Source: Candidatus Hydrogenedentota bacterium | GTDB lineage: Bacteria > Hydrogenedentota > Hydrogenedentia > Hydrogenedentales > SLHB01 | DNA: 64,000 nucleotides | NCBI GenBank assembly: GCA_029974275.1 | Contig: JARKSN010000313.1 | Location: 2,855 to 66,854 of the forward strand | Reading direction: 5' to 3' | Part shown: in pieces, positions 1-27,910 of the stretch | How the letters are laid out: each line of letters starts with the position of its first letter | How positions within the stretch are numbered: position 1 is the first letter of the stretch | Notes under the pieces: generated by a model | Database searches by the model: none | What the model was told of the DNA's origin: nothing | What the model saw: the letters and a program-made list of their open reading frames with translations, nothing else | Program-made: the position numbers and the translations under genes

Positions 1-199
1 AGAACACGTAATCCACCGGCTCGCGCAATACACGGGCAATACGCAACGCCAACAAGACCGACGGGTGCAGACGGCAACGCTCAATGGCAATGATGCTTTG
101 CCGCGAAACCCCAATTTCACGCGCCAAATCCACCTGCCGCAGCCCAAGACGCGCCCGAAGCTCACGTATTCTATTTTTCGCAACTGTATTGCTAATCAT
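1..199 (-). CDS. XRE-family helix-turn-helix transcriptional regulator, N-terminal part only (gene continues past window start)
   Basis: Minus-strand ATG at 199 reads MISNTVAKNRIRELRARLGLRQVDLAREIGVSRQSIIAIERCRLHPSVLLALRIARVLREPVDYVF, a classic Cro/C1 HTH_3 signature. It is absent from the ORF track because it runs off the window edge. Confidence 0.6.
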   Translation of the reverse strand, partial: MISNTVAKNRIRELRARLGLRQVDLAREIGVSRQSIIAIERCRLHPSVLLALRIARVLREPVDYVF

Positions 200-844
200 A
201 ATAAAAGTCTATCATATTCTACCTCCCAAATCAACCCCCAGGAGATATCACTTTACACTTTCTGCAAACGGCGTGGCCGTCTCCAACAAAAACCACCTGA
301 AAATCAACGCCGATCGAACAGCAGTTGAATCCTTCGGCTCCAAATCTCGCCCCTATATGTAAAGTTATCTATACATTGCTCGGGGCGCGCCGTGTGTGAT
401 GTGAAGTTTTTTGTACACGACGCAAGAAGGGAGCGCATGTTTTATATGCGCATTTTTCGCTAGGTTAATTATTTCGGCCTAGGTCCACTATTTCCGGACA
501 TCTACCCCCCCAAGATATCGGCTGGTCCTTCTTTCCGCCGACATCATGGTTCCAAAACGGGGCCGATGTTGCGTGACACATCGAAAAAACAAGGTTTCCA
601 GAAGCAAGGCCTTGCAGCGCGCAAGCGCCGATGCAACGCCCAGCCGTCTCCCAAAAATGAAAGCCCTCATCCTCATGGATCGTTTTCAGGCGCGGGGGCT
701 CGTTCCCATCATGCGACCACGCCCCCTCCGAAGCCCTTTCGAAAGTAAATACTCCTTTACTTTCTGGCAACAGGATTGCCTTTTCTGCTTGCGGCTTCCC
801 GGGTCTCACCGAATTGATCGATGGACCTGGCCCGGCAAGGCGCG

Positions 845-3800
845 TCATTGGGCTGCCATCGCCGGGGCTGAATTGGCGTCGCCTTCAAGCGATTTCGCCG
901 CTGCGGTCGCGGATTTCACCTCGCTGATGTAGAGGATGCTTTCGGAAGTGCTCTTGCCGCCGGTGGCCACGAGTTGCAGCGTGCACAGAAGCCCCGGCTG
1001 CATCGCGGCCGCCGCGCTCTGTCCGCCCTTGATGACGACAAGCAGTTCGCCCGGCCGCACGACGGAGCTGGAGATGGTTTTACCTGTCGCCGCATTGCCC
1101 AACGCCGCCGCAGCAGCAGCACGCGCGGACGGAGTGGTGAAGCGGGTTGGATCGTAGTTGAGAACGAACTGGATCGTAGCCGGTTTGGCGCCCATCGGGA
1201 TCTCGACGAACACCGGTATGTCGAGCACGCTTCCCGCCTTCACGACGCCCTGCGGACGAAGGGAGAGCTGGACATCCGGGACGAAGTAGGTGAATGCGTC
1301 GCGCAGGGTAGCCGTGCCGTTTGCCGCGACGGCCTGCACGCTGACCGCGCCATTGCCCTGGGGCGTCAAGGCGACGATGCCGTTGCCTCCGGGCAGGACG
1401 CGGAACCACGGGGCGGACGCAGCGCCAAAGGCAACGCTCGTGACGCCGGCAAGATTGGCTCCGGTGATCGTGACCAGCGTGCCGCCGACGGCGCTGCCGC
1501 GGGCAGGGGCCAATTGAGCCAGCGTGGGCACGGCTTCGGTGGCGCGCGCTTCCGCGAGAATGAGGCCGTCGTTCAACTCAGCCACCGTGAAGCGGAGAGT
1601 CGCCGTTTCCCCGGCTCCGGCCGTTGCCAGCGCGCGGAAGGTCAACACGGCCAGCACGCCCGATCCTTGGATAGGCTGGGCCCCGGCGCCGGCCAGTCGC
1701 AGCACGCCATTTTGAACATTCGCCACGGGAACCGGCCATGCATCGGTCAGGAGACCTTTGTTGAAGCCGACAAACTCGATCTGCGCGGGATCATATGCGA
1801 TTTCCGCGTAATAGCCGGCCACGGCCTCCGCGTTGTCTATCTGGATAGGGACTTGAAGGTCCGCATTCGCGCGCAGCGCCAAGGCGCCGGTGATGGTCAC
1901 GACACGCTTGGGAGCGCTGGGATCCGGAGAAGCAGGGGGCTGAGCGCCAACATCGGGGCCTTTGCCGTTCTTGTTGACGTCGGCAGGGAAGGACGCCAAC
2001 GTCCCCGCGGCATGTTTCAAAATCAGCGCGGCATCATAGGCGCCCACGACTGCCGGGGTGCGGGCGCTAACGTTTCCGCCGCCCAGATCGTCCGGCTTGC
2101 CCGAAAGCTGGGCCACCGGCAATTGCGCGATGAGCCCCACGCGCCGCTGGAGGACATAGGTTGCGTCTTGGGCGGTGGCCAGGCTGTCGCCATCGACATC
2201 GCCCCACGTGAACTGCCCTGCAGCGCCTTCAATGGTAAGGCTGCCGTCGTGCGTCGCGACCTTCAAGGCGTTCCGGTTCAACGAAACGCTCGACAGGGTC
2301 AGCGGCGTCACGCCCGCGGCAGCGGAAGGCAGTATGCGCAATTGCAGGGAGGCCAGGACGCCGCCGCCCGCGGCAAGGGCCTGGCCGGCGCCGGACACCG
2401 TCACGTAGTTGGCGCCTTTGTCGACTTGAACGCCGCCCCAGCGGCTCACGAGTGCGCCGTTGCTGGCTCCGGTGCAGTCGATTTTGGCATTGTCAAAGCG
2501 GACAGTCACGCTGAAACTCGTAATCCCCGCAGCGTTATTCAACGTGACGGGACAGGAGACCACCGCACTCGGAGCGGCGGTGAGAGTCGTCGGAATCGAA
2601 ACGATCAGGCCTTCTTCGCTGGGCGCATAGGTCGCTTGAAACGTAACGGTCGCGTCCTTGGCCAGGAAGGCGGCCTCTGCGGGAGGCGTGACGTAGCCAG
2701 TCACAGGCGAATACGCAATGGTGACCGCGCCGGTCGCCACGTTCGTCAGCGTCGTCGATCCCGTTCCGGCGTGAGAGACAGAGTCGGCGTCGGTCACCGT
2801 CCACCGGGCCGTGTCCGGCGAAACAGAAACCGCGACAGAACCCGCGTCGCGCGCGAGAACTGCCGAGACCGTGGCGTCGGCATTCATGACCACGCGGGCC
2901 TGGTTCGGATTCGTGGCGTCCTGAACGGCGCCGGACCAAGAAACAAGCGAATAGCCGCTTTCGGTTTGAGGAACATACGTGAGGGTCACGGCTGTGCCCG
3001 GCGCATACCGGTTGTCGGCGTCGGGCGCGGGGCTGGCGGTCACTTCGCCGTGGGAGGGCGAAAGCAACGTCAAGCGATAGGCTGTCGTGACGATTACCTG
3101 GCGCACCACGGCGACGGCCGCGTTCCCGGCGATATCGCTGACGGTGTACGTGACGGTGTATTGTCCCGCAACGGCCGTGTTGACGGCGTTCGTTGCGACG
3201 ATGCTCGCGCTAAGATCGCCGTCGATGGCGTCGGAAGCGGTTGCCCCTTCGTCGACATAGCTGGCTCCCTGGGAAACGGTAACGCGGGATTCCCCGATGA
3301 GGGCGATAACGGGAGGCGTCTTGTCGTACGCGGCGGAAACCATGCCCGAATCGGCAGGCGCGGGAGACGTATTGCCGGCATTGTCCTCGGCTTGGATCGC
3401 AAAATAGTATCTCCCCTCGGCGGAGGGAGAGAAACCGAAGGTTCCGGAAGAGGCCATCCGGGTTTGGCCGGTGTTGGTCCACGCGGCGTCCCCCTCTTTC
3501 TTGTACCACAAGGTGACGGTCTTCAGGCCGCTTCCCCCGGTGTCCCCGGCGTTGGCATAACTCAAGGTCAACGGGCCATTGATAGAGGGTGGACACTCCA
3601 TGGTTCCGGTCGTCGGCGCGGCATTGTCGAACACGGTCGACGACGCGTTCTCGACGGCCAGTTGCGGATTGACGTACACGGAATTCGCTATCTCGAGGGC
3701 GCTCTTCATAGAAGGAGAGAGGTCGAGCGGGGCGCTGGCGTCGAAACCGAACGCCCGGCCTGGCCCCCAACACGCCCAACACGCTACAAGACACATCATG

Positions 3801-3847
3801 CTCCGGAAGCAGACCGTGGAGATTGCTGGATGGTGGGCAAGTTTCAT
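845..3847 (-). CDS. Very large secreted cell-surface protein with Ig-like (DUF5011-type), dockerin-like, two cohesin-like and IPT/TIG domains; scaffoldin-like
   Basis: 1000-aa ORF with a hydrophobic N-terminus. Motifs recognised: a TPPVIALIGES...YTVTYTVSDIAGN segment (DUF5011-like Ig), GDVDGDSLATAQDATYVLQ (dockerin-like Ca-binding repeat), two cohesin-like segments (VVTITGALALRANADLQVPIQIDNAEAVAGYYAEIAYDPAQIEFVG and PATIQFVLNYDPTRF...ILYISEVK) and an IPT/TIG-like segment (GGTLVTITGANLAGVTSVAFG). The opposite-strand 967-aa ORF is Arg/Gly-rich junk. The true start may be M17/M18. Confidence 0.75.
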   Translation of the reverse strand: MKLAHHPAISTVCFRSMMCLVACWACWGPGRAFGFDASAPLDLSPSMKSALEIANSVYVNPQLAVENASSTVFDNAAPTTGTMECPPSINGPLTLSYANAGDTGGSGLKTVTLWYKKEGDAAWTNTGQTRMASSGTFGFSPSAEGRYYFAIQAEDNAGNTSPAPADSGMVSAAYDKTPPVIALIGESRVTVSQGASYVDEGATASDAIDGDLSASIVATNAVNTAVAGQYTVTYTVSDIAGNAAVAVVRQVIVTTAYRLTLLSPSHGEVTASPAPDADNRYAPGTAVTLTYVPQTESGYSLVSWSGAVQDATNPNQARVVMNADATVSAVLARDAGSVAVSVSPDTARWTVTDADSVSHAGTGSTTLTNVATGAVTIAYSPVTGYVTPPAEAAFLAKDATVTFQATYAPSEEGLIVSIPTTLTAAPSAVVSCPVTLNNAAGITSFSVTVRFDNAKIDCTGASNGALVSRWGGVQVDKGANYVTVSGAGQALAAGGGVLASLQLRILPSAAAGVTPLTLSSVSLNRNALKVATHDGSLTIEGAAGQFTWGDVDGDSLATAQDATYVLQRRVGLIAQLPVAQLSGKPDDLGGGNVSARTPAVVGAYDAALILKHAAGTLASFPADVNKNGKGPDVGAQPPASPDPSAPKRVVTITGALALRANADLQVPIQIDNAEAVAGYYAEIAYDPAQIEFVGFNKGLLTDAWPVPVANVQNGVLRLAGAGAQPIQGSGVLAVLTFRALATAGAGETATLRFTVAELNDGLILAEARATEAVPTLAQLAPARGSAVGGTLVTITGANLAGVTSVAFGAASAPWFRVLPGGNGIVALTPQGNGAVSVQAVAANGTATLRDAFTYFVPDVQLSLRPQGVVKAGSVLDIPVFVEIPMGAKPATIQFVLNYDPTRFTTPSARAAAAAALGNAATGKTISSSVVRPGELLVVIKGGQSAAAAMQPGLLCTLQLVATGGKSTSESILYISEVKSATAAAKSLEGDANSAPAMAAQ

Positions 3848-4010
3848 GTTGGGTTCCCTCGCTTGCTTGACTGTTAGGCCTTTGCCCGGCCGCTGCGAGC
3901 CCAGGAGTGCGGTCTCATGGGCGCGACAGAGCCGATGGACGTTTCCGGCATCGGCCTGTCGCGGTAGTCGGTTGAAACCACGCTCCTAGCATAGCAGGAA
4001 GGACCTGGGC

Positions 4011-4643
4011 TTACAATCCCAAGGCCGCGTTAATCACTATCTGCACGTCCATGGCGTCGACCGAACCCGAGGCGTCCATATCCGTCGGGGCGGGCGTCAC
4101 CAGACGGAGCGCGCCGTTGATGACGAGCTGCACGTCAAAGGCGTCCACGAGTCCGTCGCAGTTCACGTCGCCCCGGACAGTGGACTGCGGGACGGAGGTG
4201 GAGGACAGCGGGTCCGTGCCGGCTTGCATTTCGATCCCATCCCAAAAACCGTCATCGTCGCTATCGGGGAGGTAGGCGTACGTGCCCAACGCATATTCAT
4301 CGGCATTGGTCAAACTATCGCTGTCGCTGTCCTGGGTCGCATCGGTTCCCGTCAGCGGATCGATCCCGTTTTCCACTTCCCATCCGTCCGGCAACGAGTC
4401 GCCGTCGGTATCGGGAAGGTACGGGTTGGTTCCCAGGAGGATTTCGACATCGTCCAATAGTCCATCATTGTCCGTGTCGATCGGCGCTTCGACGATGATC
4501 TGAACGAGGGCGGCGGCGCCCGCCGAAAGGATGGCGGCCTGAGCTGTGGAACCGGCTGTCGCCATGAGGAGAATGAATGCACTCCAGGAGGCCTTGCGAA
4601 GGAATCGCCCTGTCCGGTTCTTTGCGCTCAGTGTCTTCTTCAT
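4011..4643 (-). CDS. Secreted protein with thrombospondin-type-3-like Ca-binding repeats and a C-terminal type-I dockerin repeat pair
   Basis: Signal peptide from internal Met (MKKTLSAKNRTGRFLRKASWSAFILLMATAGSTAQAA). Repeats DTDNDGLLDD, DTDGDSLPDG, DSDSDSLTNADE and DSDDDGFWDG. C-terminal GDVNCDGLVDAFDVQLVINGAL and DASGSVDAMDVQIVINAALGL match the dockerin duplicated F-hand repeat. Confidence 0.7.
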   Translation of the reverse strand: MKKTLSAKNRTGRFLRKASWSAFILLMATAGSTAQAAILSAGAAALVQIIVEAPIDTDNDGLLDDVEILLGTNPYLPDTDGDSLPDGWEVENGIDPLTGTDATQDSDSDSLTNADEYALGTYAYLPDSDDDGFWDGIEMQAGTDPLSSTSVPQSTVRGDVNCDGLVDAFDVQLVINGALRLVTPAPTDMDASGSVDAMDVQIVINAALGL

Positions 4644-5114
4644 AGTCGTGCCCTCGCTGTCTGGGTTTCGCGTCCGGGACGGCATGGTGCATACGTGGCG
4701 CCAACGGACGCTCCCCAGAGCGACATGCGCGCATCTACCGCGTAACTTATTGAAATTCAGTATGTTATCAACGAAAAACGATTCTGGAAATTCGGATCGT
4801 GGAGAGCGACAGGCTGAATCGCATCGACGGGCTTCTGGCGGGCCGTCAAGTTTTCGTCAACCGGAGCGCTGCATACCCCGGCATGGTGTCATAAAAAAGA
4901 TTGATTTTTCAAGTCCGCGATTTTGGCAATCTTAAATGTAAAAGGCGCGGAATAGGTTTACTAGTCCGAACAATATGGCGCAGTAGTAGGTATGGAAAAC
5001 TTAACTTTGTGAAAAAATACGTTTACAAAAAGAGCATTTTATTTTTCGGATCGAGGAGTTGGCAATATCGGAAGTGAATACGCTATTTTTTTGAATATGC
5101 GGCTTTAATGGTAT

Positions 5115-5984
5115 TTATTGAACGTGGCGTCGCACAGCCAGTTCCAGACCCCGCTGCACCAGGTTGATGTCGGTGAGCAGTTGGAGGGCCGCCAGGAGGG
5201 TGAAGAATAGGATGATCCGGTTGAACAGGCGTTCGGATACCCGGTGATGCATCCACTTTCCGAGGTAGGATCCGATGGGGATCAACCATACGAGCGACAA
5301 GTCGAAGAGAAGGACGTCGGTCTCGACCAGCCCCACGGCGAAATAGAATGGCAATTTTGTTATATTGAGCAGTGTAAACATCCAGGCAGTCGTGCCCACG
5401 AATACGTTCTTGCTCATGCCTTGAGCGAACATGTAAAGGCCGACGATGGGGCCCGCAGCGTGGGCCAGGGTGGAACAGAATCCTGCGGAAAGTCCGGCGA
5501 CGATGCTGAAGACAGGTCCTGGAGTAATGCGTTTCACCCAATTCCCGGCGTGTTCTTTTCCCACGATATATAGGGAAAAGACAATGGCAATGACGCCGAC
5601 GAAGCGTTTGATGGGCACGTCGTAGGTTTTGGCGCCTTCCTTGCCGATCCACCACCAGAGGGCCGCTCCAGCGAGGATTCCCGCGACGGCGGGCACATAC
5701 AGGGCGAGGATGGGTTTCCATTGTTTGTTATGGCGGTGGATGTAGATGGCGTTCAGATCGAGCAGGATGAGGAGGGGGAGCATGACGCCGGCTACGCGTT
5801 GGCTGGGCATGACCAGCATCATGAGCGGCAGGGATAAAATGCCCACGCCCCCGGCGAAACCGGATTTGCTGACGCCTTGAATGATGATGGCCACGGAAAC
5901 AAAGAGCCAGAATACCGGCTGGGGCATTCCCGGCGCGATGAAGTCGTCGAACACTCTCGATATCCTTTCCGGCGGCCTCTTCAT
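5115..5984 (-). CDS. TauE/SafE (DUF81) family anion/sulfite exporter-like membrane protein
   Basis: Multi-TM protein with paired Gly-rich helices (GFAGGVGILSLPLMMLV ... GLSAGFCSTLAHAAGPIVGLYMF) typical of DUF81. The ORF-track N-terminal 120-aa Pro/Ser-rich extension overlaps the upstream gene and is discarded. Start set at MKRPPERIS; MPQPVFW at 5927 is the alternative. Confidence 0.65.
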   Translation of the reverse strand: MKRPPERISRVFDDFIAPGMPQPVFWLFVSVAIIIQGVSKSGFAGGVGILSLPLMMLVMPSQRVAGVMLPLLILLDLNAIYIHRHNKQWKPILALYVPAVAGILAGAALWWWIGKEGAKTYDVPIKRFVGVIAIVFSLYIVGKEHAGNWVKRITPGPVFSIVAGLSAGFCSTLAHAAGPIVGLYMFAQGMSKNVFVGTTAWMFTLLNITKLPFYFAVGLVETDVLLFDLSLVWLIPIGSYLGKWMHHRVSERLFNRIILFFTLLAALQLLTDINLVQRGLELAVRRHVQ

Positions 5985-6045
5985 AGAAACGCCCGCCGTC
6001 GAGGCGGCGGGCGTGGAACCCGAGGGGCGCGTAGGGGCTGATCGG

Positions 6046-6729
6046 CTATGGCAACACGACCCAGGCGCCCGGTTCGCAGGCGCTTCCGAGTTTTTGGCCT
6101 GCGGACGATTTCTTGAAGGCGTCGAAATCGGCTCCGGCGGGCGGCAATTGGACGATTTCGCCGGAAGCGGCGCGCAGCAGCCGTTTTTGTGCGTAGACGC
6201 GTTCGACCGTGGCAACGGACACGTTTTCGGCGGCGTTGAGCCGAGCGATCTCGCGGTACAGGTCTTTGCGGTCGACATTTTCGGCGGCAACGACTTTTTG
6301 GGCCTCGTTTTTGGCGCTGGGATCGGCCAACGCCTGGGAAGGCCGGATTTCAAGATAGCCGTTGTTGGCTTCGCCGACAGCGCTGTTCTTTTTGAGTTGC
6401 TCGACGGAAGCGTGACGTTCCTTCATGCGTCCGGCGATTTCGGTGATTCTGGGGGAGGCCGATCGCAGATCGGCGGCGTAGGCGGTGCGGCACGGCGCCA
6501 GCGCATCGAGGATGTCGCGAAGCCGGGAGGATGGAGCGGGGGGCGCGGCGGTCGGTTCGGACAGGGCGTCTTTTTTGCCTTCGACAAAGTCCAGGACGTC
6601 GTCGGCCTGTTTTTCGATGTGCCGGATATCGACGGTGATATGCGCGTCGATGGTATGGCGGGTGGTGATGACGCACCCCAGGGCCAGCGCGCTGGCCGTG
6701 AAGGCGACGAGCGCTACGATGCCTCGCAT
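6046..6729 (-). CDS. YdbL-like (DUF1318) periplasmic lipoprotein
   Basis: Signal peptide with lipobox LALGC. NNGYLEI ... DRKDLYREIARLN ... RVYAQKRL motifs are characteristic of DUF1318/YdbL. Confidence 0.6.
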   Translation of the reverse strand: MRGIVALVAFTASALALGCVITTRHTIDAHITVDIRHIEKQADDVLDFVEGKKDALSEPTAAPPAPSSRLRDILDALAPCRTAYAADLRSASPRITEIAGRMKERHASVEQLKKNSAVGEANNGYLEIRPSQALADPSAKNEAQKVVAAENVDRKDLYREIARLNAAENVSVATVERVYAQKRLLRAASGEIVQLPPAGADFDAFKKSSAGQKLGSACEPGAWVVLP

Positions 6730-7190
6730 GGCGTGTTCCTCCTTTGAAGCGGCGCAAGGGGCCGCGTCCCATTTTTCCCTCTTGTTGCCATTCTACACCT
6801 TGGACGTCCGCCGGGCGAGTTTTATTCGATCTGAATTTGATTGCGGCGGCAGATCGCGTTAGGATGTTTCGCGATTCTTCTGCGCTGCGACAGCGAACGG
6901 GAAGAATCAGCGGGATGGCTGGTTGTATACGGCCTTGCGCGGGGGCTCCTGATTTTGTAGTGCACGCATTGCTCCGGGACCGGAATGCTTGCGCAGGCCG
7001 CAAAGGCCTTTGCACGCGGCGAATGTCTCGGCGCGGTCGGCGCGTGCGGGGGATGTTCTCGCGCCGCAATGCAGGGCGTTTCACGACGATCGCCCGCATC
7101 CATCGCTCAATGGGGAAAGGAGGGATGCCGCCAACCATCAGATCATGTTCCGTATTTCTGCGTCAATATTCCATCAAATAATACAGAAAC

Positions 7191-7210
7191 GGCCCGAACG
7201 TTACGGGCCC
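7191..7210 (+). promoter_or_regulatory. Small hairpin in the 5' leader of the alginate-export-family porin gene
   Basis: GGCCCG-aacgtta-CGGGCC, 17 nt upstream of the ATG and just 5' of the GGGGGGAAACC RBS. Confidence 0.25.
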
Positions 7211-7226
7211 GAAGCGGGGGGAAACC

Positions 7227-8804
7227 ATGCGAACAAGCATCGTGACAATCCTCATTGCCGTCGCGGCATTGGGGGCGGCGCCTGCGCTGGCCGAATTGCA
7301 GAACGTCACCGTCGGCGGCGAAGTGCGCATCAAGACCGATATTATCACGAACTGGATAGTGGATAACGCGCCGGTAGAACTGCGCATTCCTGCGGGCTTC
7401 ATGCCCAAACGCCCCATCGGGGATTTCATTCTGGCCAATCCGATCTTCAATGGCTTGGGCGTTGTCAGTCCGTATGCCTGGAGCAAAGTCAACGACGCCA
7501 ACTGGACAGAACAACGCACGCGGCTGCATGTCGCGGCGGATTTCACGGATGGCGTCGGCGCCTTCGTGGAACTCGAGGCGTACAATTTTTGGGGCGATAA
7601 TTTCCGCTCCGATTACGTCACCGGCGCGGACAACCGGGCCGGAACCAACGTCACGTTGTATCAAGCCTACATTGAAGCCAAGGAAATGTACGGCCTGCCG
7701 CTGTCGCTGCGCGTAGGGCGCCAGGAACTCGCGTTCGGCAGCCAGTGGCTTGTCGGACCAAAGGATTTTGGCCCCAACTACACCGGACGCTCTTTTGACG
7801 CCCTCAAGCTGACCTATGCGACCGACCTCTTCAAGGTCGACGCGTTCGCCTCGAAGCTGTTCGAAGGCGGCACGGTCGAGCAAGACGGCGACGTCGATTT
7901 CTACGGCCTGTACGCGAGTTTCCTGGGCATCGAGGACATCTCGATCGACGCGTACTGGTTCCTTCTGCGGGATGCGCGCCGTCTCTCCGACACGAACCTC
8001 GTCTGGTTCGGCGAATGGGTAGAGAATGTGTTGAAACTGGACGACTACGACGTCTCCAACCTTCACACGGTTGGAATGCGCGGCGCCGGCAAGATCGGCG
8101 GCTTCGATTTCGATGCTGATGTGGCCTACCAGTTCGGCGACGCCGACAGCGTGGGCTATCATTTCAAGCCGTTCCAGTATGGCGACAACCGAGCGGAGTT
8201 CGACGCGTGGGGCTGCAACCTGAACGTCGGCTACACCTTCGACATCGCCATGCAGCCGCGCCTGCACCTCGGCTACAGTTTCTATCAGGGCGCCGACAAC
8301 CGCGACCTGACGTTCTGGGAATGGCTGAATCCCTTCCATCGTCCCGAAGCCAGCGTCAGCTTCAACCGTCTGTTTTCGAACAAGATGGCCAGCGGATTTC
8401 TGGACCTGATGAACGACTACTCGAACGGACACATCTTTGTCACCGATGTCATGGCTCATCCCACGGAATCCGTGACCGTAATCGCAGGGTTGACCTATTA
8501 CTTGGCCGACGAAGCCTTCGCCGAGCCGTACTACGTCAAACTGGGGCGGTACCATATCCCGATCATGCCGAGTTGGTCCTTCTGGACGAAGGAAAGCAGC
8601 CGCGACCTCGGCCTCCAGTCCGACATCATCATCGTGTACGCCTATTCCAAGGACTTGACCACTTCGTTCCATTGGTGCCACCTGTTCACCGGCGACGGGC
8701 TCAAGGATGGCAACTACAATGCATGGAATGGTTTGATGTTCGATGGCGGAAGAGAGGGGAAGGATGGAGATTTCTTCTCGCTTGAGACCTGCCTGAAGTT
8801 CTAG
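7227..8804 (+). CDS. Outer-membrane beta-barrel protein, alginate-export (AlgE-like) porin family
   Basis: Signal peptide MRTSIVTILIAVAALGAAPALA. Long amphipathic beta-strand pattern rich in aromatic residues (YNFWGDNFRSDY, GRQELAFGSQWLVGP, KLTYATDLFKVDAF). GGGGAAACC RBS precedes the ATG. Confidence 0.6.
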   Translation: MRTSIVTILIAVAALGAAPALAELQNVTVGGEVRIKTDIITNWIVDNAPVELRIPAGFMPKRPIGDFILANPIFNGLGVVSPYAWSKVNDANWTEQRTRLHVAADFTDGVGAFVELEAYNFWGDNFRSDYVTGADNRAGTNVTLYQAYIEAKEMYGLPLSLRVGRQELAFGSQWLVGPKDFGPNYTGRSFDALKLTYATDLFKVDAFASKLFEGGTVEQDGDVDFYGLYASFLGIEDISIDAYWFLLRDARRLSDTNLVWFGEWVENVLKLDDYDVSNLHTVGMRGAGKIGGFDFDADVAYQFGDADSVGYHFKPFQYGDNRAEFDAWGCNLNVGYTFDIAMQPRLHLGYSFYQGADNRDLTFWEWLNPFHRPEASVSFNRLFSNKMASGFLDLMNDYSNGHIFVTDVMAHPTESVTVIAGLTYYLADEAFAEPYYVKLGRYHIPIMPSWSFWTKESSRDLGLQSDIIIVYAYSKDLTTSFHWCHLFTGDGLKDGNYNAWNGLMFDGGREGKDGDFFSLETCLKF

Positions 8805-8991: not shown

Positions 8992-9516
8992 GTGTTGTGC
9001 GAACGATGTCGGAAAAACGCGGCTACGGCCCGGTACAGCGAGGTGGTCCACGGCAAGGTGTCCGTGCGGAACATCTGCAAGTCCTGCCTCGACGCCTTAC
9101 AGGAGGACCCCTCCACCGGGTTCGAGATCGCCGGAGCTCCTGCCGCCAAACGGACAAAAGCCGCCCAGGAACCGGCCGAGCCCGCCATCCCCCACCGATC
9201 GTGTCCGGCATGCGGACTCAGCTTGCGCATGGCGATCAAGGCGGGGCGCATGGGATGCGGCGCGTGCTACCGGAATTTCGGCGACGCCGTCGATTCCCAA
9301 CTGCGCGGGTTGCACGTCTCGTTGCGGCATCGGGGCAAGACGCCCCGCGTCGACGATATCCGCGATCGGGTTCGGGCCGATCTCCACGGCAAGCGCGCCC
9401 TGCTGCGCACCGCGCTCAAACTGGAAGATTACGAAAAAGCGGCCGCGCTCCGGGACGACATCAGAGCCCTGGAGACGGGGCTGGGGGCAACCGCAAGGAC
9501 GCCGGGACATAACTGA
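8992..9516 (+). CDS. mcsA: McsA-like activator of protein arginine kinase (zinc-finger CxxC pairs plus C-terminal UVR motif)
   Basis: GTG start 6 nt after a GGAGAA RBS. CERC...CKSC and CPAC...CGAC zinc-finger pairs. C-terminal LKLEDYEKAAALRDDIRALE is a UvrB/UvrC-type motif. The stop lies 4 nt before mcsB. Confidence 0.6.
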   Translation: MLCERCRKNAATARYSEVVHGKVSVRNICKSCLDALQEDPSTGFEIAGAPAAKRTKAAQEPAEPAIPHRSCPACGLSLRMAIKAGRMGCGACYRNFGDAVDSQLRGLHVSLRHRGKTPRVDDIRDRVRADLHGKRALLRTALKLEDYEKAAALRDDIRALETGLGATARTPGHN

Positions 9517-9519
9517 TTC

Positions 9520-10572
9520 ATGCTCGAGACATTCCTTGAAAAAACCGCGGCCTGGTCCGCGGGCAACGGCCCTCAAGCCGAAATGACGGTGTGCACCCGA
9601 GGCGGGATCGTGCGCAACCTCGCCGATTTTTCGTTTCCGTGGCGCTGTTCCGACGACGAACGCGCCGCCGTGGCGGACCGCGTCGCGAATGCGATCAAGC
9701 GTTCCAGCCTCCTTCCGGGCAGCCAGTACATCCCAGTGGATCATGCCGAACCGCGTGAACTCCGTTTTCTTTTGGAGCGGCGCCTCATCACCGAAGACCT
9801 GATACGGGCGGAAGGCCCCCGCGGCGTGCACATCAGCGCCGATCAGGATTTGTGCGTCATGGTGAACGGGCTGCATCACCTCCACATTCAGGCAATCGCG
9901 CCCGGCCTGCAGCCGGAAGAAATCTGGAAACGCCTGAACCTGGCAGACGACCAACTGGCGCGCCGCCTCGACTATACGTTCGATTCCAACCTGGGATATC
10001 TCGGACCGGAGCTCGCGCGTCTCGGCACGGGCCTGCGGCTCAGCGTTTTGGTCCATCTGCCCGCGCTCGCGCTTGCCAACACAATCCGTTCCTTGACCCA
10101 ATCGTTGCGCGACCAGTGGCACCTCCTCGAGGGAGCCTTTGGGGGAACACACGAAGCCCGAGGCGATCTGTATTGGCTGTCCAACCAATCCACCTTGGGC
10201 CGATCCGAGGACGAGATTGTGTTTCACTTGGGCCACTTCGCCGGGATGATTCTTTCCCAGGAGCAAAGCGCGCGCGCCGTTCTTCAGGGCGAATCGCCGC
10301 GCAGTCTGGAAGATCGCGTGGGACGCGCGTGGGGCATGGCCCGCGGCGCCCGGTTGCTCGACTTCGACGAAGCGCTCGCCTTGCTGTCGTCGTTGCGGCT
10401 GGGACACGCCCTCGGCATGCTTGAGGGGTGCGCCGTGCACCAGTTCAACGATCTCCTCCTCTCCGCGCAACGCGCCCACATCGAGTCTCGCAGGGGACAC
10501 GATTGCGACGAGCTTGCCCTTGGCGCCGAACGCGCCGATCTTTTCCAAAGCCTGTTTGCCGCGCACGGCTAA
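9520..10572 (+). CDS. mcsB: Protein arginine kinase McsB (ATP:guanido phosphotransferase family)
   Basis: N-terminus aligns with the McsB family (RNLADFSFP). Phosphagen-kinase core motifs present: LGYLGPELARLGTGLRLSVLVHLPAL and the C-terminal catalytic region. Confidence 0.75.
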   Translation: MLETFLEKTAAWSAGNGPQAEMTVCTRGGIVRNLADFSFPWRCSDDERAAVADRVANAIKRSSLLPGSQYIPVDHAEPRELRFLLERRLITEDLIRAEGPRGVHISADQDLCVMVNGLHHLHIQAIAPGLQPEEIWKRLNLADDQLARRLDYTFDSNLGYLGPELARLGTGLRLSVLVHLPALALANTIRSLTQSLRDQWHLLEGAFGGTHEARGDLYWLSNQSTLGRSEDEIVFHLGHFAGMILSQEQSARAVLQGESPRSLEDRVGRAWGMARGARLLDFDEALALLSSLRLGHALGMLEGCAVHQFNDLLLSAQRAHIESRRGHDCDELALGAERADLFQSLFAAHG

Positions 10573-19309: not shown

Positions 19310-21460
19310 ATGCGCGCCGCTCGAAACAACACGCCGCCGAATCGGCTTGCCCGTGCGACAAGCCCCTACTTGCGGCAACATGCGCACAATCCCGTGGATT
19401 GGTTTCCGTGGTGCGAAGAAGCGCTGCGAAAAGCGGAGCGCGAGGACAAGCCCATTTTCCTGTCCATCGGCTACTCCGCGTGTCACTGGTGTCATGTCAT
19501 GGAACGAGAGTCCTTTGAAGACAAGGACACCGCGGCGCTGCTCAACGCGCATTTCGTCAGCATCAAGGTTGATCGAGAAGAGCGGCCCGATCTCGACGAG
19601 CTCTACATGAGCGCGGTGCAACTCACGACGCAAAACGGCGGATGGCCCATGTCGGTGTTCCTGACGCCGGAGCGGATGCCGTTCTACTGCGGCACGTATT
19701 TCCCTCCGTCCGATCAGCATGGGCGCCCAGGCTTCCAGACCGTGCTCCGCGCATTGGCGAAGGCGTGGCGAGAACAACGCGACTTCATTCGCGGCAATGC
19801 GCGGCAACTTACCGAATGCCTTCGCCTCGGCGGAGCGGGGCGACCCGAGGAAAGCGCGCCGATACGCCCCGATCTGATCCGCCATGCGGCGGCGGCGCTG
19901 TCCATGAGCTTCGACCCCGAACATGGCGGCTGGGGCGGCGCGCCGAAATTTCCCGCGCCGGCATCGATCGCGACGCTGTTGCGCCACGCCTGGCGTCACG
20001 GAGATTCCCATGCTCTCGCCATGGCCTCGTCCACCTTGGAAGCCATGGCGCGCGGAGGCATTCACGACCATCTTGGCGGCGGCTTCCACCGGTATGCGGT
20101 CGACGCGGCATGGCATGTTCCCCACTTTGAAAAAATGCTCTACGACAATGCGCAACTCGCGGCAGCATATCTCGAAGGATACCAATGCACGAAAAAATCG
20201 CTTTTCCGGGAGACGGCGGAAGGAATTTTTCGGTATGTCCTGCGCGATCTGATTTCTCCGGAAGGCGGTTTCTTTTCCAGCGAAGACGCAGACAGCGACG
20301 GACAGGAAGGGATGTTCTATCTGTGGAAGCGCGATGAATTGGACGCCGTTCTCGGCAAGGACGATGCGGCGCTTTTCGCCCATTGCTATAACGTGCGCCC
20401 CGAGGGAAATTTCGATTCGCCCGAAACGCGCCACGCGGGCATGAACATCCTGCGCCGGGCATGGCCCATCGACCCGCACGAAGCCGTTTTTTGCGGGATG
20501 GAGGCGACCGCGCTGGAGGCAGCGCTGGAGCCGATGCGGACGCGCCTTTTCAACGTCCGCGCCCAACGCGCCCGGCCAGGACGAGACGACAAAGCGATCG
20601 CTTCCTGGAATGGAATGATGATCGCGGCGTTCGCGCGCGGCGCGCAGGCACTCCACGAGCCACGGTATGCCGAAGCGGCCCGGCGCGCCGCCGGGTTCAC
20701 GCTCGAACGCTTGCGTCACGATGGACTGCTGGCGCGCAGTTATCGCGATGGCGCGACAAGCGCGCCGGGCTTCCTGGACGACTATGCCCAGGTCGCTTCG
20801 GCTTTGGTTGACCTGTACGAGACCGAGTTCGATGCGCGTTGGCTGCGCGAGGCCAAGCTGCTTGCCGATCGCATGATCGCGTTGTTTTGGGATCGGGAGG
20901 CAGGCGGCTTTTTCAGCGCGCCCCACGGCCAAGAGGACCTTATCGCGCGACTCAAACCGGTCTACGATACGGCCGAACCTTCTGGCAACGCGGCGGCGGC
21001 GACGCTCCTGCTGCGCCTGGCCGCCTATTTTGATAACGCCGAATACCGGAAAACGGCGGAAATCGTGCTCGAACAAAATGCGGCCCTGCTTGAAACGGTT
21101 CCGCAAGCCATGGGCCGCATGCTCTGCGCGGCAGACCAATATCTGCATCCCCCGACGGAAATCGTGCTGGTCGGACCGCGCTCATGCGCCGACGTCCAGC
21201 GCATGGTGCGCGCATTGCACGAGCATTTTCTTCCGAATAAAGTAGTGGCCTTGGCGGATGCTGAAGACGATGACCCGGTTGCGTCGCGGCGCAGGCCATG
21301 GGCCGCCGTCAACGCCATGCAACGCGGCGCGGCCACGGCGCTTGTATGCAGCGATTTCACGTGCCTGCCGCCGCTGGCTACGCCCGAGGCGCTGGCGCAA
21401 GCGTTGGAAAAAGCCAACGGGAGGACGCACGAATGCGCACATGGATCCTCGTCGGATTGA
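19310..21460 (+). CDS. yyaL: Thioredoxin-domain protein YyaL (DUF255 plus six-hairpin glycosidase-like domain)
   Basis: GGAGGAGG RBS 7 nt before the [26 protein letters not shown]...[19 protein letters not shown] is the DUF255/thioredoxin-like N-terminus of YyaL. About 700 aa. Confidence 0.75.
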
Positions 21461-23166
21461 TCGCGTTGATAGGCGCGGGGCTGCTGGACCGTCCCGTGCA
21501 AGCGCAGTCATCTTCCCCGGCGATGCGCGTCGAAGCGGTTACGCAAACCGACGCCGCTCACCCAGGCTCCCGCCTCGACGTCGCCATCGTCGCCACCCTT
21601 CCCGAAGGCTGGCATACCAACTCCAACGCGCCGCTGGAGGCATTTCTGATACCCACCGAACTCACCGTGACGCCTCCCGCAGGCATTACGGTCGAGCGCA
21701 TCGCGTACCCCGAGGCCAAGCGCGTCACGTTCTCGTTCTCCTCCACGCCTGTCGCCGTGTACGATCGCGAGTTTGTGATGCGAGTGCAGCTGGCCCTTGC
21801 CAAGGACCTGGCTCCCGGCGCATATCTGGCAACGGGCGCGCTGCGCTACCAGGCCTGCAACGATCGCACCTGCGCCCCGCCCAAAACCGTCCCCGTGTCG
21901 ATCGCGGTGAACGTCGTTCCGCCTGATCGCGCCGTGACGCCACAGCGCCCGGAACTGTTCGATCAGCCCCTTTCCGCCGCGCCCGCCGAAACGGGGCGGT
22001 CCGAAGCGCCAACGACGCCGGTCGCGGAGCCTTCCCCCGGCGCCTGGAAAGAACGACTCGAACGTTTCGAGACGATGAGCGTCGGAAGTTTCATGACCGC
22101 CTCCGAATTCTTGCGCTTCCTCGAGGACGCGGAATCGGGGAGAGGGCGATCGGCGACGGGCTTGTTTGAGGGACGCAGCATCGCGACGGTGATCCTCTTG
22201 ACGTTGATCGGCGGTCTCGCGCTGAACCTGACGCCGTGCGTGTTGCCGTTGATTCCCATCAACATCGCGATCATCGGCGCCGGCGCACGCGCCAGTTCGC
22301 GCGGACGCGGCTTCGCTTTGGGCGCGGTGTATGGCGGCGGCATCGCTCTCGTCTACGGCGCGCTCGGACTGATCGTCGTGATCGCCGGAAAGACCTTTGG
22401 CGCGATCAACGCCTCGCCTTGGTTCAACGGCGCGATCGCCGTCGTGTTTGTCGCGCTCGCCTTGGCCATGTTCGACCTGTTCCTAATTGATTTCACCCGC
22501 TTTCAAGCCAAGATCGGCCTCAAGAAAAAAGAAGGCGGCAGCTATCCCGTCGCGTTTTTCATGGGGGGGATATCCGCGCTACTCGCGGGCGCGTGCGTGG
22601 CGCCCGTCGTGATCGCCGTCCTTCTTTTCTCGCAAGACCTGTACGCCAAGGGGTCGTCGGCCGCGTTGCTGCTTCCCTTCCTGTTGGGCGTGGGCATGGC
22701 CTTGCCCTGGCCCTTCGCGGGAGCCGGTCTTTCCTTTCTGCCCAAGCCCGGCAAATGGATGGAGCGCGTCAAATATGCCTTCGGCGTTTTTATCCTGCTC
22801 CTCGCCGGATACTACGGCTACCTGTCCTACAGTCTGTTCACCGCCCGCACTTCCGAAACCACGCACGTGGCCCAAAGCGTCGCCGCCCTCGAAACACACG
22901 GCTGGACCTCGTCGCTCGAAGAAGGTCTTGCCCGCGCCGCTTCCGAGAAGAAACCCGTGGTGATCGATTTCTGGGCCACCTGGTGCAAGAACTGTCAAAT
23001 CATGAACGAGACCACCTTCAAAGACCCTGAAGTTGTCCGCCGTCTCGATCGCTACGTCAAAATCAAATACCAGGCAGAGTCTCCCGACGATCCGCCGCAC
23101 AAGGAAATTCTCGACCGCTTCCGCGCCGTCGGTCTGCCTACAATCGTGGTCCTGCGTCCAAAATGA
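21433..23166 (+). CDS. dsbD: Thiol:disulfide interchange protein DsbD (protein-disulfide reductase)
   Basis: Signal peptide [19 protein letters not shown]-terminal DsbD-alpha domain with [12 protein letters not shown]. Central multi-TM CcdA-like domain. C-terminal thioredoxin [12 protein letters not shown]. Confidence 0.8.
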
Positions 23167-23257
23167 ATCGGGAGCCGGGACTTTTCTTTTGGACACTCAT
23201 GCTCTATAATGTCGCCAATAGCCAGCGGTTCCGATGCCGCGAATGGAGGAACTAGAA

Positions 23258-23824
23258 ATGAACCGAAAGGTGCGCTTGGGTGTCGCCGTATGTGTGTCCA
23301 TGTTGCTTGCCGCGTTCTTGGTCGTCGCCACGCACGCCGACGACGGCGCCACGTACGTCGGCGCCGCCAAGTGCAAGATGTGCCACAACAAAGCCGATGA
23401 GGGGCAAGTGTGGACGAAGTGGCAGGAATCGAAACATGCCAAAGCCTTCGCGACGTTGAAAACGGATGAAGCCAAAGCGGTCGCCGAAAAAGCGGGCGTT
23501 GCCACGGCTCCGTCCGAAGCGCCCGAATGCCTGCGCTGCCACGTGACCGCATATGAGAAAGACAAGCCACTCCCGGCGGACATCAAGATGGAGGACGGCG
23601 TCCAGTGCGAAAGCTGCCACGGCCCTGAGTCCGCGCACTTTGCCGCAGCCAAAAAGGCGCTTGCAGACAAGTCCATTCCCCAAGTCCTTTCGGGCGCGCC
23701 CAAGGAAGAAACGTGCAAGAAATGCCACAATCCGGAGAGTCCGACGTATAAGGAATTCAACTTCAAGTCGTTCTCCGAAAAGATTGCCCATCCCAACCCG
23801 TTGCGAAAGGCCCCCAAATCCTGA
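23258..23824 (+). CDS. Periplasmic tetraheme c-type cytochrome
   Basis: GGAGG RBS. Signal peptide. Four CxxCH motifs (CKMCH, CLRCH, CESCH, CKKCH). Confidence 0.75.
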   Translation: MNRKVRLGVAVCVSMLLAAFLVVATHADDGATYVGAAKCKMCHNKADEGQVWTKWQESKHAKAFATLKTDEAKAVAEKAGVATAPSEAPECLRCHVTAYEKDKPLPADIKMEDGVQCESCHGPESAHFAAAKKALADKSIPQVLSGAPKEETCKKCHNPESPTYKEFNFKSFSEKIAHPNPLRKAPKS

Positions 23825-23995
23825 TCGCGCCGTGACCCGAGCGAAGCTGTCCGTTTGCGTGCGATGCGCGGTTTCCGGAGAGGCCTTCCTTCGCACAGCA
23901 AGCCGAGGCCATGATTTCGCCCGCGCACGCCGCAGCTGTGAGTGAATAACGATTGGGCTGGGTTCCGATCCGGACGACTGGACCATGGAGACGCC

Positions 23996-24643
23996 ATGAA
24001 AACACGCATCCTGCTGTCCGCACTCGTAGTCTGTTCCCTCGGGTGCGATGCCGACAACGTCAAATCCATTACGCAAGCGCGGATGGTTCCCGCGCCCGCA
24101 CTGGCGACGGCGGACGGGACGGCGACGCAAGGATTTCATGCGGCGCACCCCCCTATCGAGGCATCGGGCATGGCGGGATCGCCGCATGCGCGGACGGTTC
24201 CCTTCCGTTGGACCAAGCCCGCTTCCTGGGCCGACATTCCGCCCACGTCCATGCGGCTCGCCAATTTTTCCATTCCTGACCGGCCCCGCGTCGAATGCTA
24301 TATTTCGACGTTGTCGGGCGCGGCGGGGGGCGTCGCCGCAAACGTCAACCGTTGGCGCAACCAGATGGGGCAACCCGATCTCGCCTCCGACGAGATCGCC
24401 GCGTTGCCGACGATCGAGGTGATGGGCAAACCGGCTTCGATGGTCGAGACGACGGGCTCCTACACCGGCATGAAAGGGGCCACCGAACCCAACTACACGT
24501 TGCGCGGCCTTGTCTTGGAATTGCCCGGCCAGGTTCTTTTCGTCAAGATGATTGGTCCAACGGAAGAAGTGGCTGCCTTGAAGGAGGATTTCGTGGCATT
24601 ATGCGCCTCGATCGCCTCCGTTCCGCCGGAAGACGCCCCGTGA
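23996..24643 (+). CDS. Lipoprotein of unknown function, embedded in the cytochrome c maturation cluster
   Basis: MKTRILLSALVVCSLGC lipobox signal. No CxxC motif and no recognised family. Confidence 0.5.
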   Translation: MKTRILLSALVVCSLGCDADNVKSITQARMVPAPALATADGTATQGFHAAHPPIEASGMAGSPHARTVPFRWTKPASWADIPPTSMRLANFSIPDRPRVECYISTLSGAAGGVAANVNRWRNQMGQPDLASDEIAALPTIEVMGKPASMVETTGSYTGMKGATEPNYTLRGLVLELPGQVLFVKMIGPTEEVAALKEDFVALCASIASVPPEDAP

Positions 24644-25809
24644 AGATCATCCTTCAACGCGGGTTTCTCGCCCTTTCCTCGTACGGATTCTCCTGCATAT
24701 TGTTTTTGTTCCTGTTTGTGCTGACCTATCTGGGAACCATCGAACAGGTTACGCACGGCCTGTACGAAACCAGCCGGAAGTATTTCGAGTCCGTTTTTCT
24801 GACGCATTACCTGTGGGGAGTCGTTCCCGTGCCGCTCCCCGGGGCCTACCTCCTGCTCGTCCTGCTTGCCCTCAATCTCGTAGCCTGCGCCTTCGTGCGC
24901 AACCGGCTGAGTTGGGCGCGCACCGGCGTGTTGCTGGCCCATGCAGGCATCTTGCTCTTGCTGCTTGGCGCCTTCCTCTCTTTTCAACGCTCGCAACAGG
25001 GCCAACTGACACTGTACGAAAATGAGCACGCCCATGAATTCCAAAGCTATCAGCAATGGGAGATCGGGCTCTGTCCTCTTGCGAAACCCGGAACGACGGT
25101 GGAAGAGCGCATCATTTCGCCCCGAGATCTCGCCCAGGGGAAGCGGAACGCCCCTGTCTCTTTCGAATTTCCTGGGCTTCCCATCCGCCTTACGGTGTCG
25201 GATTTCGCTAGGAATGCCCGTCCTCAATCCGCAAGCGGATCTTCCGTCGCCGGCAAGGCGATCGACGGCGTCGTATTGACGGCGCTTCCCCCCGCTCGGG
25301 ATGGCGAGACGAATATTCCAGGAGCCTACGTAACCGTGGAGGACCTGTCCAGCGGCGAGCAGCGCGAAGGCATTTTGTGGGGCGCCGCGCGATCCCCGCT
25401 TGCGTTGGAATTGGGCGGCGTCTCCTGGGCGATCGAACTGCGGCGCCAGCGTTGGACCTTGCCTTTCCAGGTGACGCTTGATTCATTCGTCCGGGAGGTC
25501 TATCCGCGCACCTCCATCCCGAAGGTGTTTGAGAGCACAGTGACCGTCCGCGACGGCGATCTCGAGCAGCGTTTCAAGATCGCCATGAATGAGCCGTTGC
25601 GCTACAAGGGCTATACGTTTTTTCAATCCTCCTGGGGGCCGCCGAACGCCGGGCCCAACGATCGGCTCTACTCCACGCTCGCCGTGGTGAAAAATCCGGC
25701 GGAAAAATTCCCCTTGTACGCTTCCGCCGTCATATCCCTGGGCATGTCCATTCACTTCGGGCTGGCGCTCATCCCGCGCCTCAAGAACCGGAGACGGAGG
25801 ACGGCATGA
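24601..25809 (+). CDS. ccsB: Cytochrome c biogenesis protein CcsB/ResB (System II)
   Basis: N-terminal TM helices (FSCILFLFLFVLTYLGTIEQ), a large periplasmic domain, and the C-terminal RYKGYTFFQSSWGP plus final TM helix typical of the ResB family. Start ambiguous: ATG at 24601 overlaps the lipoprotein by 43 nt, or GTG at 24642 overlaps its stop. Confidence 0.7.
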   Translation: MRLDRLRSAGRRPVKIILQRGFLALSSYGFSCILFLFLFVLTYLGTIEQVTHGLYETSRKYFESVFLTHYLWGVVPVPLPGAYLLLVLLALNLVACAFVRNRLSWARTGVLLAHAGILLLLLGAFLSFQRSQQGQLTLYENEHAHEFQSYQQWEIGLCPLAKPGTTVEERIISPRDLAQGKRNAPVSFEFPGLPIRLTVSDFARNARPQSASGSSVAGKAIDGVVLTALPPARDGETNIPGAYVTVEDLSSGEQREGILWGAARSPLALELGGVSWAIELRRQRWTLPFQVTLDSFVREVYPRTSIPKVFESTVTVRDGDLEQRFKIAMNEPLRYKGYTFFQSSWGPPNAGPNDRLYSTLAVVKNPAEKFPLYASAVISLGMSIHFGLALIPRLKNRRRRTA

Positions 25810-27794: not shown

Positions 27795-27881
27795 GCGCAG
27801 AGGTGCAAGGGGTTCCGAAGGGGGACGAGGTTCGCAAAGGCGGGATTGCAGATAAAAAATCTCGTTTCTCTCTTTTTTCCC

Positions 27882-27910
27882 TTTACAAGTTTCATGAAAT
27901 GCACTACAAT
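27882..27910 (+). promoter_or_regulatory. Sigma-70-like promoter upstream of the multiheme cytochrome / beta-barrel cassette
   Basis: TTTACA - 17 nt - TACAAT, in the 425-nt gap between ccsA and the first cytochrome gene. Predicts an about 300-nt leader containing a GGCGTTTTC...GAAAACGCC inverted repeat. Confidence 0.4.

Follow-up and report, generated by a model that had tools for sequence, protein, structure and literature searches.

The stretch of DNA analysed here (the window) comprises 64,000 nucleotides of contig JARKSN010000313.1 from a Candidatus Hydrogenedentota bacterium. Near its beginning, two adjacent genes, which we call A and B, encode predicted secreted proteins that carry cohesin and dockerin modules. 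Both open reading frames (ORFs) are found on the minus strand where an earlier reading made from the letters alone (the sequence-only reading) had placed them, with B starting at 4643, and their G+C content at third codon positions (GC3, 0.75-0.76) is the usual one for coding sequence of this window (62% G+C). The locus comprises:

845..3847, minus strand: gene A, a 1000-aa scaffoldin-like protein, predicted to be secreted (ORF, Pfam and family alignment)
3848..4010, minus strand: B-A intergenic spacer of 163 nt, with a GAGG-type ribosome-binding site before A
4011..4643, minus strand: gene B, a 210-aa TSP3-repeat protein, predicted to be secreted, with a C-terminal dockerin
4688..4703, minus strand: candidate sigma-54 promoter, a -24/-12 element TGGCGC-N5-ATGCA (TGGCGCCACGTATGCA), 60 nt upstream of the B start codon

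A two-gene operon, B followed by A, under a predicted shared sigma-54 promoter is the best reading of this arrangement. To our knowledge, cohesin and dockerin modules outside the cellulolytic Firmicutes have been catalogued for more than 15 years, and almost none has been given a partner or a role. Peer and co-workers are said to have described in 2009 a class of non-cellulosomal cohesin-dockerin proteins that is reportedly almost uncharacterised. A and B belong to this known class, and NCBI labels A at the domain level.

The conserved core of A covers about 600 aa, in which the modules follow the order cohesin, dockerin, cohesin, TIG, cohesin. From the N-terminus onwards, the protein is composed of the following parts:

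3746..3847, minus strand: predicted signal peptide, aa 1-34, with a conserved A-x-A|F-D motif at its end (family alignment)
3323..3625, minus strand: N-terminal Ig-like domain, aa ~75-175, with weak Big_13/Big_9 matches (E ~1e-3, below cut-offs)
3089..3307, minus strand: Bact_surface_Ig-like domain (DUF5011), aa 181-253 (Pfam E 3.1e-17, 62.8 bits, cut-off 27)
2624..3076, minus strand: variable insert, made of an InlB B-repeat-like domain, aa 258-330, and an unassigned beta domain, aa ~335-408
2225..2608, minus strand: cohesin module 1, aa ~414-541 (38.8 bits against the Pfam PF00963 cut-off of 24.1)
1952..2212, minus strand: internal dockerin, aa 546-632 (family profile; three helices in the AlphaFold2 model)
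1532..1906, minus strand: cohesin module 2, aa ~648-772 (Pfam 53 bits, E 5e-14)
1286..1528, minus strand: IPT/TIG domain, aa 774-854 (Pfam E 2.7e-7, 30.9 bits, cut-off 20.9)
893..1279, minus strand: cohesin module 3, divergent, aa ~857-985 (family profile; beta-sandwich in the AlphaFold2 model)

Two cohesin-like domains had been counted in A by the sequence-only reading; we find three, of two types. The Pfam Cohesin profile matches the whole protein at E 1.2e-24 in three stretches, two of them above the cut-off, while module 3 taken alone scores 18.2 bits against a cut-off of 24.1 and was recognized by its family profile. This profile, built from five sequences, matches the NagJ cohesins (E 3-4e-4) and the ScaC cohesin (E 5.6e-4). 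When local hidden Markov models (HMMs) were compared, modules 1 and 2 matched each other at E 1e-16 to 1e-23 and module 3 matched neither. On these profile comparisons, A is a protein with three cohesin modules of two types, modules 1 and 2 being paralogous and module 3 distinct.

An AlphaFold2 (AF2) model of aa 408-1000, based on a 16-sequence alignment, reached a predicted local distance difference test score (pLDDT) of 87.7 and a predicted TM-score (pTM) of 0.67, with a pLDDT of ~90 in cohesin module 1; an earlier model from two sequences (pLDDT 49.7) was discarded. The model contains three beta-sandwiches, a three-helix dockerin and the TIG domain. Searched against the PDB with Foldseek, it matched solved cohesins at TM 0.72-0.80 and a root-mean-square deviation of 2.4-3.4 Å (values that do not tell the modules apart), and these included cohesins of types I, II and III besides the non-cellulosomal cohesin of Archaeoglobus fulgidus. 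At the level of models, the cohesin fold, a nine-stranded beta-sandwich (jelly-roll), is confirmed, with three modules that are all-beta. Profiles and Foldseek matches together back the cohesin and dockerin folds over the alternative that these segments are generic Ig domains or repeats without EF-hands.

The dockerin-like repeat of A, the DUF5011 domain and the IPT/TIG domain, all noted before, were recovered. With Pfam PF00404 the internal dockerin scores 16.1 bits, under the cut-off of 22.9, but a family profile from five sequences matches the Acetivibrio cellulolyticus ScaB dockerin in the PDB (4UYQ_B) at E 5e-7 over both F-hands, followed by many further dockerins. We took as an F-hand a loop with D/N at positions 1, 3, 5, 9 and 12 and a helix after each loop. 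The first F-hand of the internal dockerin, DVDGDSLATAQD, is near-canonical; the second loop is longer (14 residues), reads NVSARTP at aa 592-598 (~nt 2054-2074, minus strand) where the family has DVSGDxP, and is followed by a conserved FPAD-x-NGxG-GPD motif. The TIG domain profile also matches Plexin IPT domains. Outside the core, the InlB B-repeat-like domain was assigned by Pfam Flg_new_2 (E 2.3e-8), and the family alignment shows how changeable this part is: the N-terminal Ig-like domain is missing from the L007 homologue, and the variable insert is absent from the L003 and L007 homologues and doubled in L010 and P0189.

Gene B encodes a small protein with three recognizable parts:

4536..4643, minus strand: predicted signal peptide, aa 1-36 (...STAQA|A; sequence and family alignment)
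4224..4481, minus strand: four TSP3-type calcium-binding loops, DTDNDGLLDDVE, DTDGDSLPDGWE, DSDSDSLTNADE and DSDDDGFWDGIE
4014..4178, minus strand: type-I dockerin, aa 156-210, with nearly identical halves DVNCDGLVDAFDVQLVINGAL and DMDASGSVDAMDVQIVINAAL

The TSP3 loops match Pfam TSP3_bac at E 1e-12 and their aspartates are invariant in the family alignment. The dockerin scores 32.3 bits against Dockerin_1 (PF00404, cut-off 22.9), so that it joins cohesin modules 1 and 2 of A among the modules annotated above Pfam cut-offs, and its profile matches the XynY dockerin 2CCL_B in the PDB at E 0.007. The TSP3 repeats and the dockerin of the sequence-only reading were borne out. Loop 1 of the dockerin, DVNCDGLVDAFD, is canonical; loop 2, DMDASGSVDAMD, is near-canonical in this genome. 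The helix DVQ[LI]VIN[AG]AL is strongly conserved in both halves. Between the local HMMs of the B dockerin and of the internal dockerin of A, the cross-match was at E 0.008 only, and by this comparison the two dockerins are of different types.

The product of gene A is identical to P0001, a protein of a metagenome-assembled genome (MAG) at NCBI (GCA_022706165.1). The annotation of P0001 starts at M47 (L001 2972; window 3709-3847, minus strand) and gives 954 aa. Members of its 90% cluster come from Candidatus Hydrogenedentes/Hydrogenedentota and are named cohesin domain-containing protein or DUF5011 domain-containing protein; two of them are annotated at the full 1000 aa. In the alignment of A-family N-termini, a hydrophobic core is followed by A-x-A, an invariant F (F35 in A) and then D or E. 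Because this signal-peptidase-like motif runs through the family, the alignment indicates that the 1000-aa start is the correct one and that the M47 start cuts off the signal peptide. A lipoprotein reading of A (LVAC, aa 20-23) was rejected, as the cysteine is unconserved and the family has the A-x-A|F cleavage-type motif instead. For B, the reading frame spans 4011-4685 and the ATG at 4643 lies inside it, giving 210 aa. A start at 4685 was rejected because the sigma-54 element lies directly upstream of that ATG, so that a transcript from this element would begin downstream of that codon. The ATG at 4643 has a GAGG ribosome-binding site in front of it.

Secretion of both proteins is supported by inference from their signal-peptide-like N-termini. 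A scan of A and B for anchors found no match to PEP-CTERM (PF07589/TIGR02595), S-layer homology (SLH), LPXTG, type IX secretion system (T9SS) C-terminal or transmembrane segments, the C-termini being ...APAMAAQ in A and ...ALGL in B, and Pfam detected no carbohydrate-binding module (CBM) in either protein. The description of A as a giant surface protein did not hold: with 1000 aa it is not giant and, since an anchoring module was not found, only the label secreted is supported.

The window, L003, L007, L010, L094 and L013 all have an element of the type TGGCAC-N5-TTGCW at a distance of 60-69 nt upstream of the start codon of B, and each of the six copies has 9-10 of 11 consensus matches. As a background, at least 9 of 11 matches occurred 7 times in 128 kb, that is, ~0.025 times per 450 nt. 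In the aligned upstream regions of B, which otherwise lack conservation, the TGGC and TGC of the element are the sole invariant columns before the region of the ribosome-binding site, and it is this conserved position across loci that supports the predicted sigma-54 element. The B-A spacer contains no terminator-like site and no sigma-54-like site. A-like genes without B have a sigma-54-type element of their own (L095, L099, L002), and one also precedes the PEP-CTERM genes found upstream of B in L003 and L007.

The promoter regions of L013, L095, L099 and L003 also share an inverted repeat, GTAA-N3-16-TTAC (for example TGTAAACATATGTTACA), at 44-64 nt upstream of the -24 element. It occurs in four of 11 sigma-54 promoter regions, with ~0.007 expected per 110 nt, and is a candidate site for a sigma-54 activator; in the window the form is degenerate (~4741-4767, minus strand) and not clearly present. 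Neither a riboswitch nor a leader was detected with Rfam in positions 1-5300. A sub-threshold match to whalefall-1 inside A, on the opposite strand (3407-3455, plus strand; 22 bits against 37, E 0.027), is probably due to chance.

Both proteins belong to families whose named members are all from Candidatus Hydrogenedentota (Hydrogenedentes); at least some of the related contigs are of metagenomic origin. The B family has at least 15 full-length members of 196-210 aa, 40-52% identical from end to end, with a uniform architecture of signal peptide, short conserved beta segment, four TSP3 loops and dockerin. For A, single-stretch matches to the entire core were obtained for about 16 representatives of clusters at 50% identity, and one family member lacks cohesin 1. 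Members were chosen by this single full-length stretch because giant TIG-repeat proteins dominated the matches of the exhaustive representative search; searches with the whole protein returned mostly DUF5011-repeat proteins, and a word-index search with the C-terminal core yielded one full homologue only. A profile scan of contigs with the B-family alignment was rejected, as the generic TSP3 pattern led to unrelated TSP3 proteins from many phyla.

Linkage was surveyed in 10 distinct A-family loci. In six of them (window/L001, L003-6, L007-9, L010-12, L094 and L096), B is the gene directly before A and has the same orientation, at a spacing of 58-197 nt where measured, and this adjacency is kept although the A cores are mutually only 32-43% identical. 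Counting any protein with a B-type dockerin (signature DVQLVINAALG) within 10 kb of A, the association extends to eight of the 10 loci. Two loci without B contribute here, each with such a protein 5-8 kb from A: a CarboxypepD_reg protein in L002 (550-2037) and a 1575-aa FG-GAP/DUF5011 protein ending in a B-type dockerin in L098 (1-459). No B-type dockerin protein was found near A in L095 (a 7.7-kb contig) or L099. Another CarboxypepD_reg protein with this dockerin is encoded at L013 2991-3962. A mirror-tree comparison of B and A-core identities gave r = 0.22, at saturated divergence.

These linkage data bear on the possibility that the internal dockerin of A clasps a cohesin of the same chain, as an intramolecular lock. 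A would then be a rigid stalk or adhesin with the N-terminal Ig domains as its working end, and B an independent, co-regulated calcium-binding matrix protein. The pTM of the five-module chain suggests confident packing between modules, the N-terminal part is variable, as is often the case in adhesin tips (A-family members range from 750 to 2547 aa in total length owing to this part), and some B-like genes (L013, L097) have no A in their vicinity. This model would, however, leave two or three conserved cohesins partnerless, and it sits poorly with the presence of a B-type dockerin protein near A in most loci. We regard such a lock as doubtful.

The cohesins of A invite comparison with adaptor scaffoldins such as ScaA and ScaB of Acetivibrio cellulolyticus (PDB 3L8Q, 4UYP/4UYQ), in which, like in A, one secreted polypeptide without catalytic function unites several cohesins with a dockerin. 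Another shared trait is the presence of two dockerin and two cohesin types, suggesting hierarchical assembly; the cohesin folds match as well, and the profile of the internal dockerin of A finds its best match in the ScaB dockerin. In contrast to adaptor scaffoldins, the dockerin of A is internal, between two cohesins, instead of C-terminal; neither a dockerin-tagged glycoside hydrolase nor a CBM, SLH domain or sortase anchor came to light here; and the genes belong to a candidate Gram-negative phylum, in a predicted sigma-54 operon with exopolysaccharide (EPS) genes adjacent in related genomes. A-B is, judging from the sequence, a scaffoldin-type system in the sense of having at least two cohesins, but in the window and the related loci it fails to display the testable features of a cellulosome, namely a dockerin-fused hydrolase, a CBM and an anchor.

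Among non-cellulosomal systems, the cohesin-dockerin proteins of Archaeoglobus fulgidus (cohesin 2XDH) provide a fold match at TM 0.78 and presumably combine cohesin and dockerin modules in one protein. They differ from A-B in having no DUF5011, TIG or TSP3 partner, and we know of no report, for that organism, of a conserved operon of two genes, a promoter for sigma-54 or a link to EPS. The toxin complexes of Clostridium perfringens (NagJ; PDB 2JH2, 2O4E, 2OZN), which gave the best match of cohesin 3, also consist of non-cellulosomal pairs joining secreted proteins. There the modules join large glycoside hydrolase toxins, whereas the partners seen in A-B are all non-catalytic, and organism and regulation differ as well.

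The likeness to scaffoldins is what speaks for a cellulosome-like carrier, in which the cohesins of A would gather dockerin-tagged hydrolases encoded elsewhere and B would be a minor non-catalytic passenger, competitor or loading regulator. The best dockerin match is ScaB, the best fold matches are cellulosomal cohesins, several different proteins bear a B-type dockerin, and L010 ends with a Peptidase_C25 gene. Moreover, there are proposals of cellulosome-like systems for other candidate phyla. In the case of Ca. Stygibacter (Cloacimonadota), like A-B a cohesin-dockerin assembly proposed from genomes of an uncultured non-Firmicutes phylum, dockerins occur on chitinase, amylase and peptidase homologues and the scaffoldin carries CBMs and a T9SS C-terminal domain (PMC8542988); dockerin-bearing enzymes, CBMs and a T9SS domain were not found here. 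Local HMMs detected no cohesin or dockerin beyond A and B in the window, and the dockerin proteins of the window and related loci, which cover a small part of each genome, are all non-catalytic (TSP3, CarboxypepD_reg and FG-GAP/DUF5011 proteins), with no dockerin-bearing enzyme among them. With A lacking a CBM and an anchoring module, and with EPS-biosynthesis and regulatory genes instead of glycoside hydrolases as neighbours, we consider an enzyme carrier of this kind unlikely. The suggestion of the sequence-only reading that A and B form a self-contained non-cellulosomal pair is favoured by their adjacency in six of 10 loci, the shared sigma-54 element with no terminator-like site in the spacer, and the absence of dockerin enzymes among the proteins seen; the word self-contained has to be qualified, as other non-enzymatic proteins of related genomes bear the B-type dockerin too.

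The surroundings of the related loci suggest a different role. In seven of the 10 loci, EPS/PEP-CTERM or sigma-54-regulator genes adjoin the A-like gene, each locus having at least one from this set: sigma-54 activators, PEP-CTERM proteins, a pair of response regulator and sigma-54 genes, Poly_export, a tyrosine kinase resembling Wzc, transferases of the Hexapep and WecG kinds, and a large PrsT-like tetratricopeptide repeat (TPR) protein. The best NCBIfam matches of these neighbours are components of the XrtA/PEP-CTERM system (pepcterm_export, pepcterm_TyrKin, PrsT, PEP_resp_reg). In L097, a B-family gene adjoins an exosortase-glycosyltransferase fusion (Exosortase_EpsH) and EpsI.

Sigma-54 sites closely upstream of PEP-CTERM genes have been described together with the PrsK, PrsR and PrsT proteins (Haft et al. 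2006; PMC1569441), and the dependence on RpoN of the floc-forming PEP-CTERM gene pepA was shown experimentally (PMC9850573). The A-B locus resembles the PEP-CTERM/exosortase system in the candidate -24/-12 promoter shortly upstream of the B start codon and, at related loci, in the neighbouring component types (PEP-CTERM proteins, sigma-54 response regulators, polysaccharide export protein, tyrosine autokinase, PrsT-like TPR protein, exosortase-EpsI). It differs in that A and B have no PEP-CTERM tail and the window has no such neighbours. On this comparison, A and B would be accessory co-regulated matrix proteins and not exosortase substrates.

Based on these data, we propose that B and A constitute a sigma-54-dependent, non-enzymatic cohesin-dockerin assembly module for the extracellular matrix, a reading in which binding is inferred and to which we assign a probability of about 0.55. 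After export, the internally symmetric dockerin of B may dock into cohesins of one type in A, in the simplest case cohesins 1 and 2; the two halves of this dockerin are near-identical in the helix, as in dual-mode type I dockerins. The internal dockerin of A would pair with a cohesin of the other type, whether within the same chain or on another A molecule, and calcium-dependent chains or networks may result. Other proteins with a B-type dockerin, such as the CarboxypepD_reg and FG-GAP/DUF5011 proteins, could be loaded on the same scaffold. The complex would be one protein component of an exopolysaccharide matrix (floc, biofilm or capsule) and would be turned on together with it. A role in such a matrix seems the most likely one because the operon usually lies near sigma-54 regulators, PEP-CTERM and polysaccharide-export genes.

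Several observations weigh against this proposal. The sigma-54 copy of the window (9/11) is by itself not above chance, with 12 matches in the window against 19.5 expected. The NCBIfam scores of the neighbouring genes are all below equivalog cut-offs, and the window itself holds no EPS, exosortase or sigma-54-activator gene within 60 kb of the pair. No anchor module was found on A or B. Additionally, the enzyme search covered 64 kb of this genome, a small part of it, and dockerin-bearing enzymes may be encoded elsewhere. As to the modules, the second loop of the internal dockerin of A has lost acidic calcium ligands (positions 1 and 5), in this genome only, and most proteins of the B family have a dockerin whose second loop is degenerate at position 5. 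Finally, B is not adjacent to A in four of the 10 loci which, together with the lone B-like genes of L013 and L097, indicates that the pairing is not obligate.

The partly degenerate calcium loops of both dockerins and the loci without pairing are what would be expected if regulation were all that A and B share. They would then be separate secreted proteins of a sigma-54 matrix regulon, whose modules bind polysaccharide or other proteins. Most non-cellulosomal cohesin and dockerin modules reportedly lack a demonstrated partner, a statement said to go back to Peer and co-workers in 2009. However, cohesin and dockerin are cognate in all characterised cases known to us, gene order and close spacing survive deep divergence, and the dockerin helix is conserved in both halves of B, as expected of a protein-binding face. 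We judge shared regulation alone to be very unlikely.

The assembly module favoured here can be extended to a more specific picture, which we put forward only tentatively. In this picture A would polymerise through its internal dockerin and cohesin 3, while cohesins 1 and 2 capture the calcium-loaded TSP3 protein B and other non-enzymatic cargo with dockerins, and the product, a protein "Velcro" switched by sigma-54 and a type of matrix builder not described before, would cross-link exosortase/PEP-CTERM exopolysaccharide into flocs or capsules. If it is true, this would be the first defined physiological role of a non-cellulosomal cohesin-dockerin system outside enzyme or toxin assembly.

A search of the available literature found no work joining cohesin, dockerin and PEP-CTERM, and a link between Hydrogenedentes and dockerins in passing mentions only. 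The features that appear to be new are an operon that is conserved, a dockerin placed inside A between cohesins that are paralogues, cargo without enzymes, control by sigma-54 and the association with EPS genes. The family offers a compact and conserved test case, in which a single promoter and two genes account for three cohesins (of two types) and dockerins of two types, with no enzymes and with a recurring link to sigma-54-controlled EPS loci. If the predicted binding is true, the use of cohesin-dockerin pairs would reach beyond enzyme display, to the architecture of a matrix or floc in a little-known phylum, and new orthogonal calcium-dependent protein connectors would become available for synthetic biology. 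If binding fails, the case would be a caution against calling systems "cellulosome-like" from domain matches in MAGs.

In the window, the neighbours of the pair are genes for TauE, DUF1318, an alginate-export-type porin, McsA/McsB-like proteins and housekeeping functions, with metabolic genes farther off. The region upstream of the operon (5115-8804) encodes a membrane protein of the TauE/SafE family, a DUF1318 protein and an outer-membrane porin of the alginate-export type (525 aa), none of which is kept beside the pair in other loci. Downstream of A, a 147-aa HTH_3/HTH_31 regulator (1-199, minus strand; L001 6482-6925) is cut by the start of the window. A McsA-like protein with a UVR motif and a McsB-like ATP:guanido phosphotransferase (8992-10572, plus strand) form a protein-arginine-kinase module.

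Farther away (21298-34344, plus strand), a DsbD-like gene and cytochrome c biogenesis genes of the ResB/CcsA type precede the gene for a Big_2/PKD protein of 854 aa, which has multihaem domains like those of MtrC/MtrF. Two more multihaem cytochromes and a 542-aa ORF without a Pfam match come next, and the stretch looks to be a cluster of the extracellular-electron-transfer type. Three other large ORFs without a Pfam match have a coding-like GC3: 45492-47363 (minus strand, 623 aa), 47645-49855 (plus strand, 736 aa) and 37509-38444 (plus strand, 311 aa).

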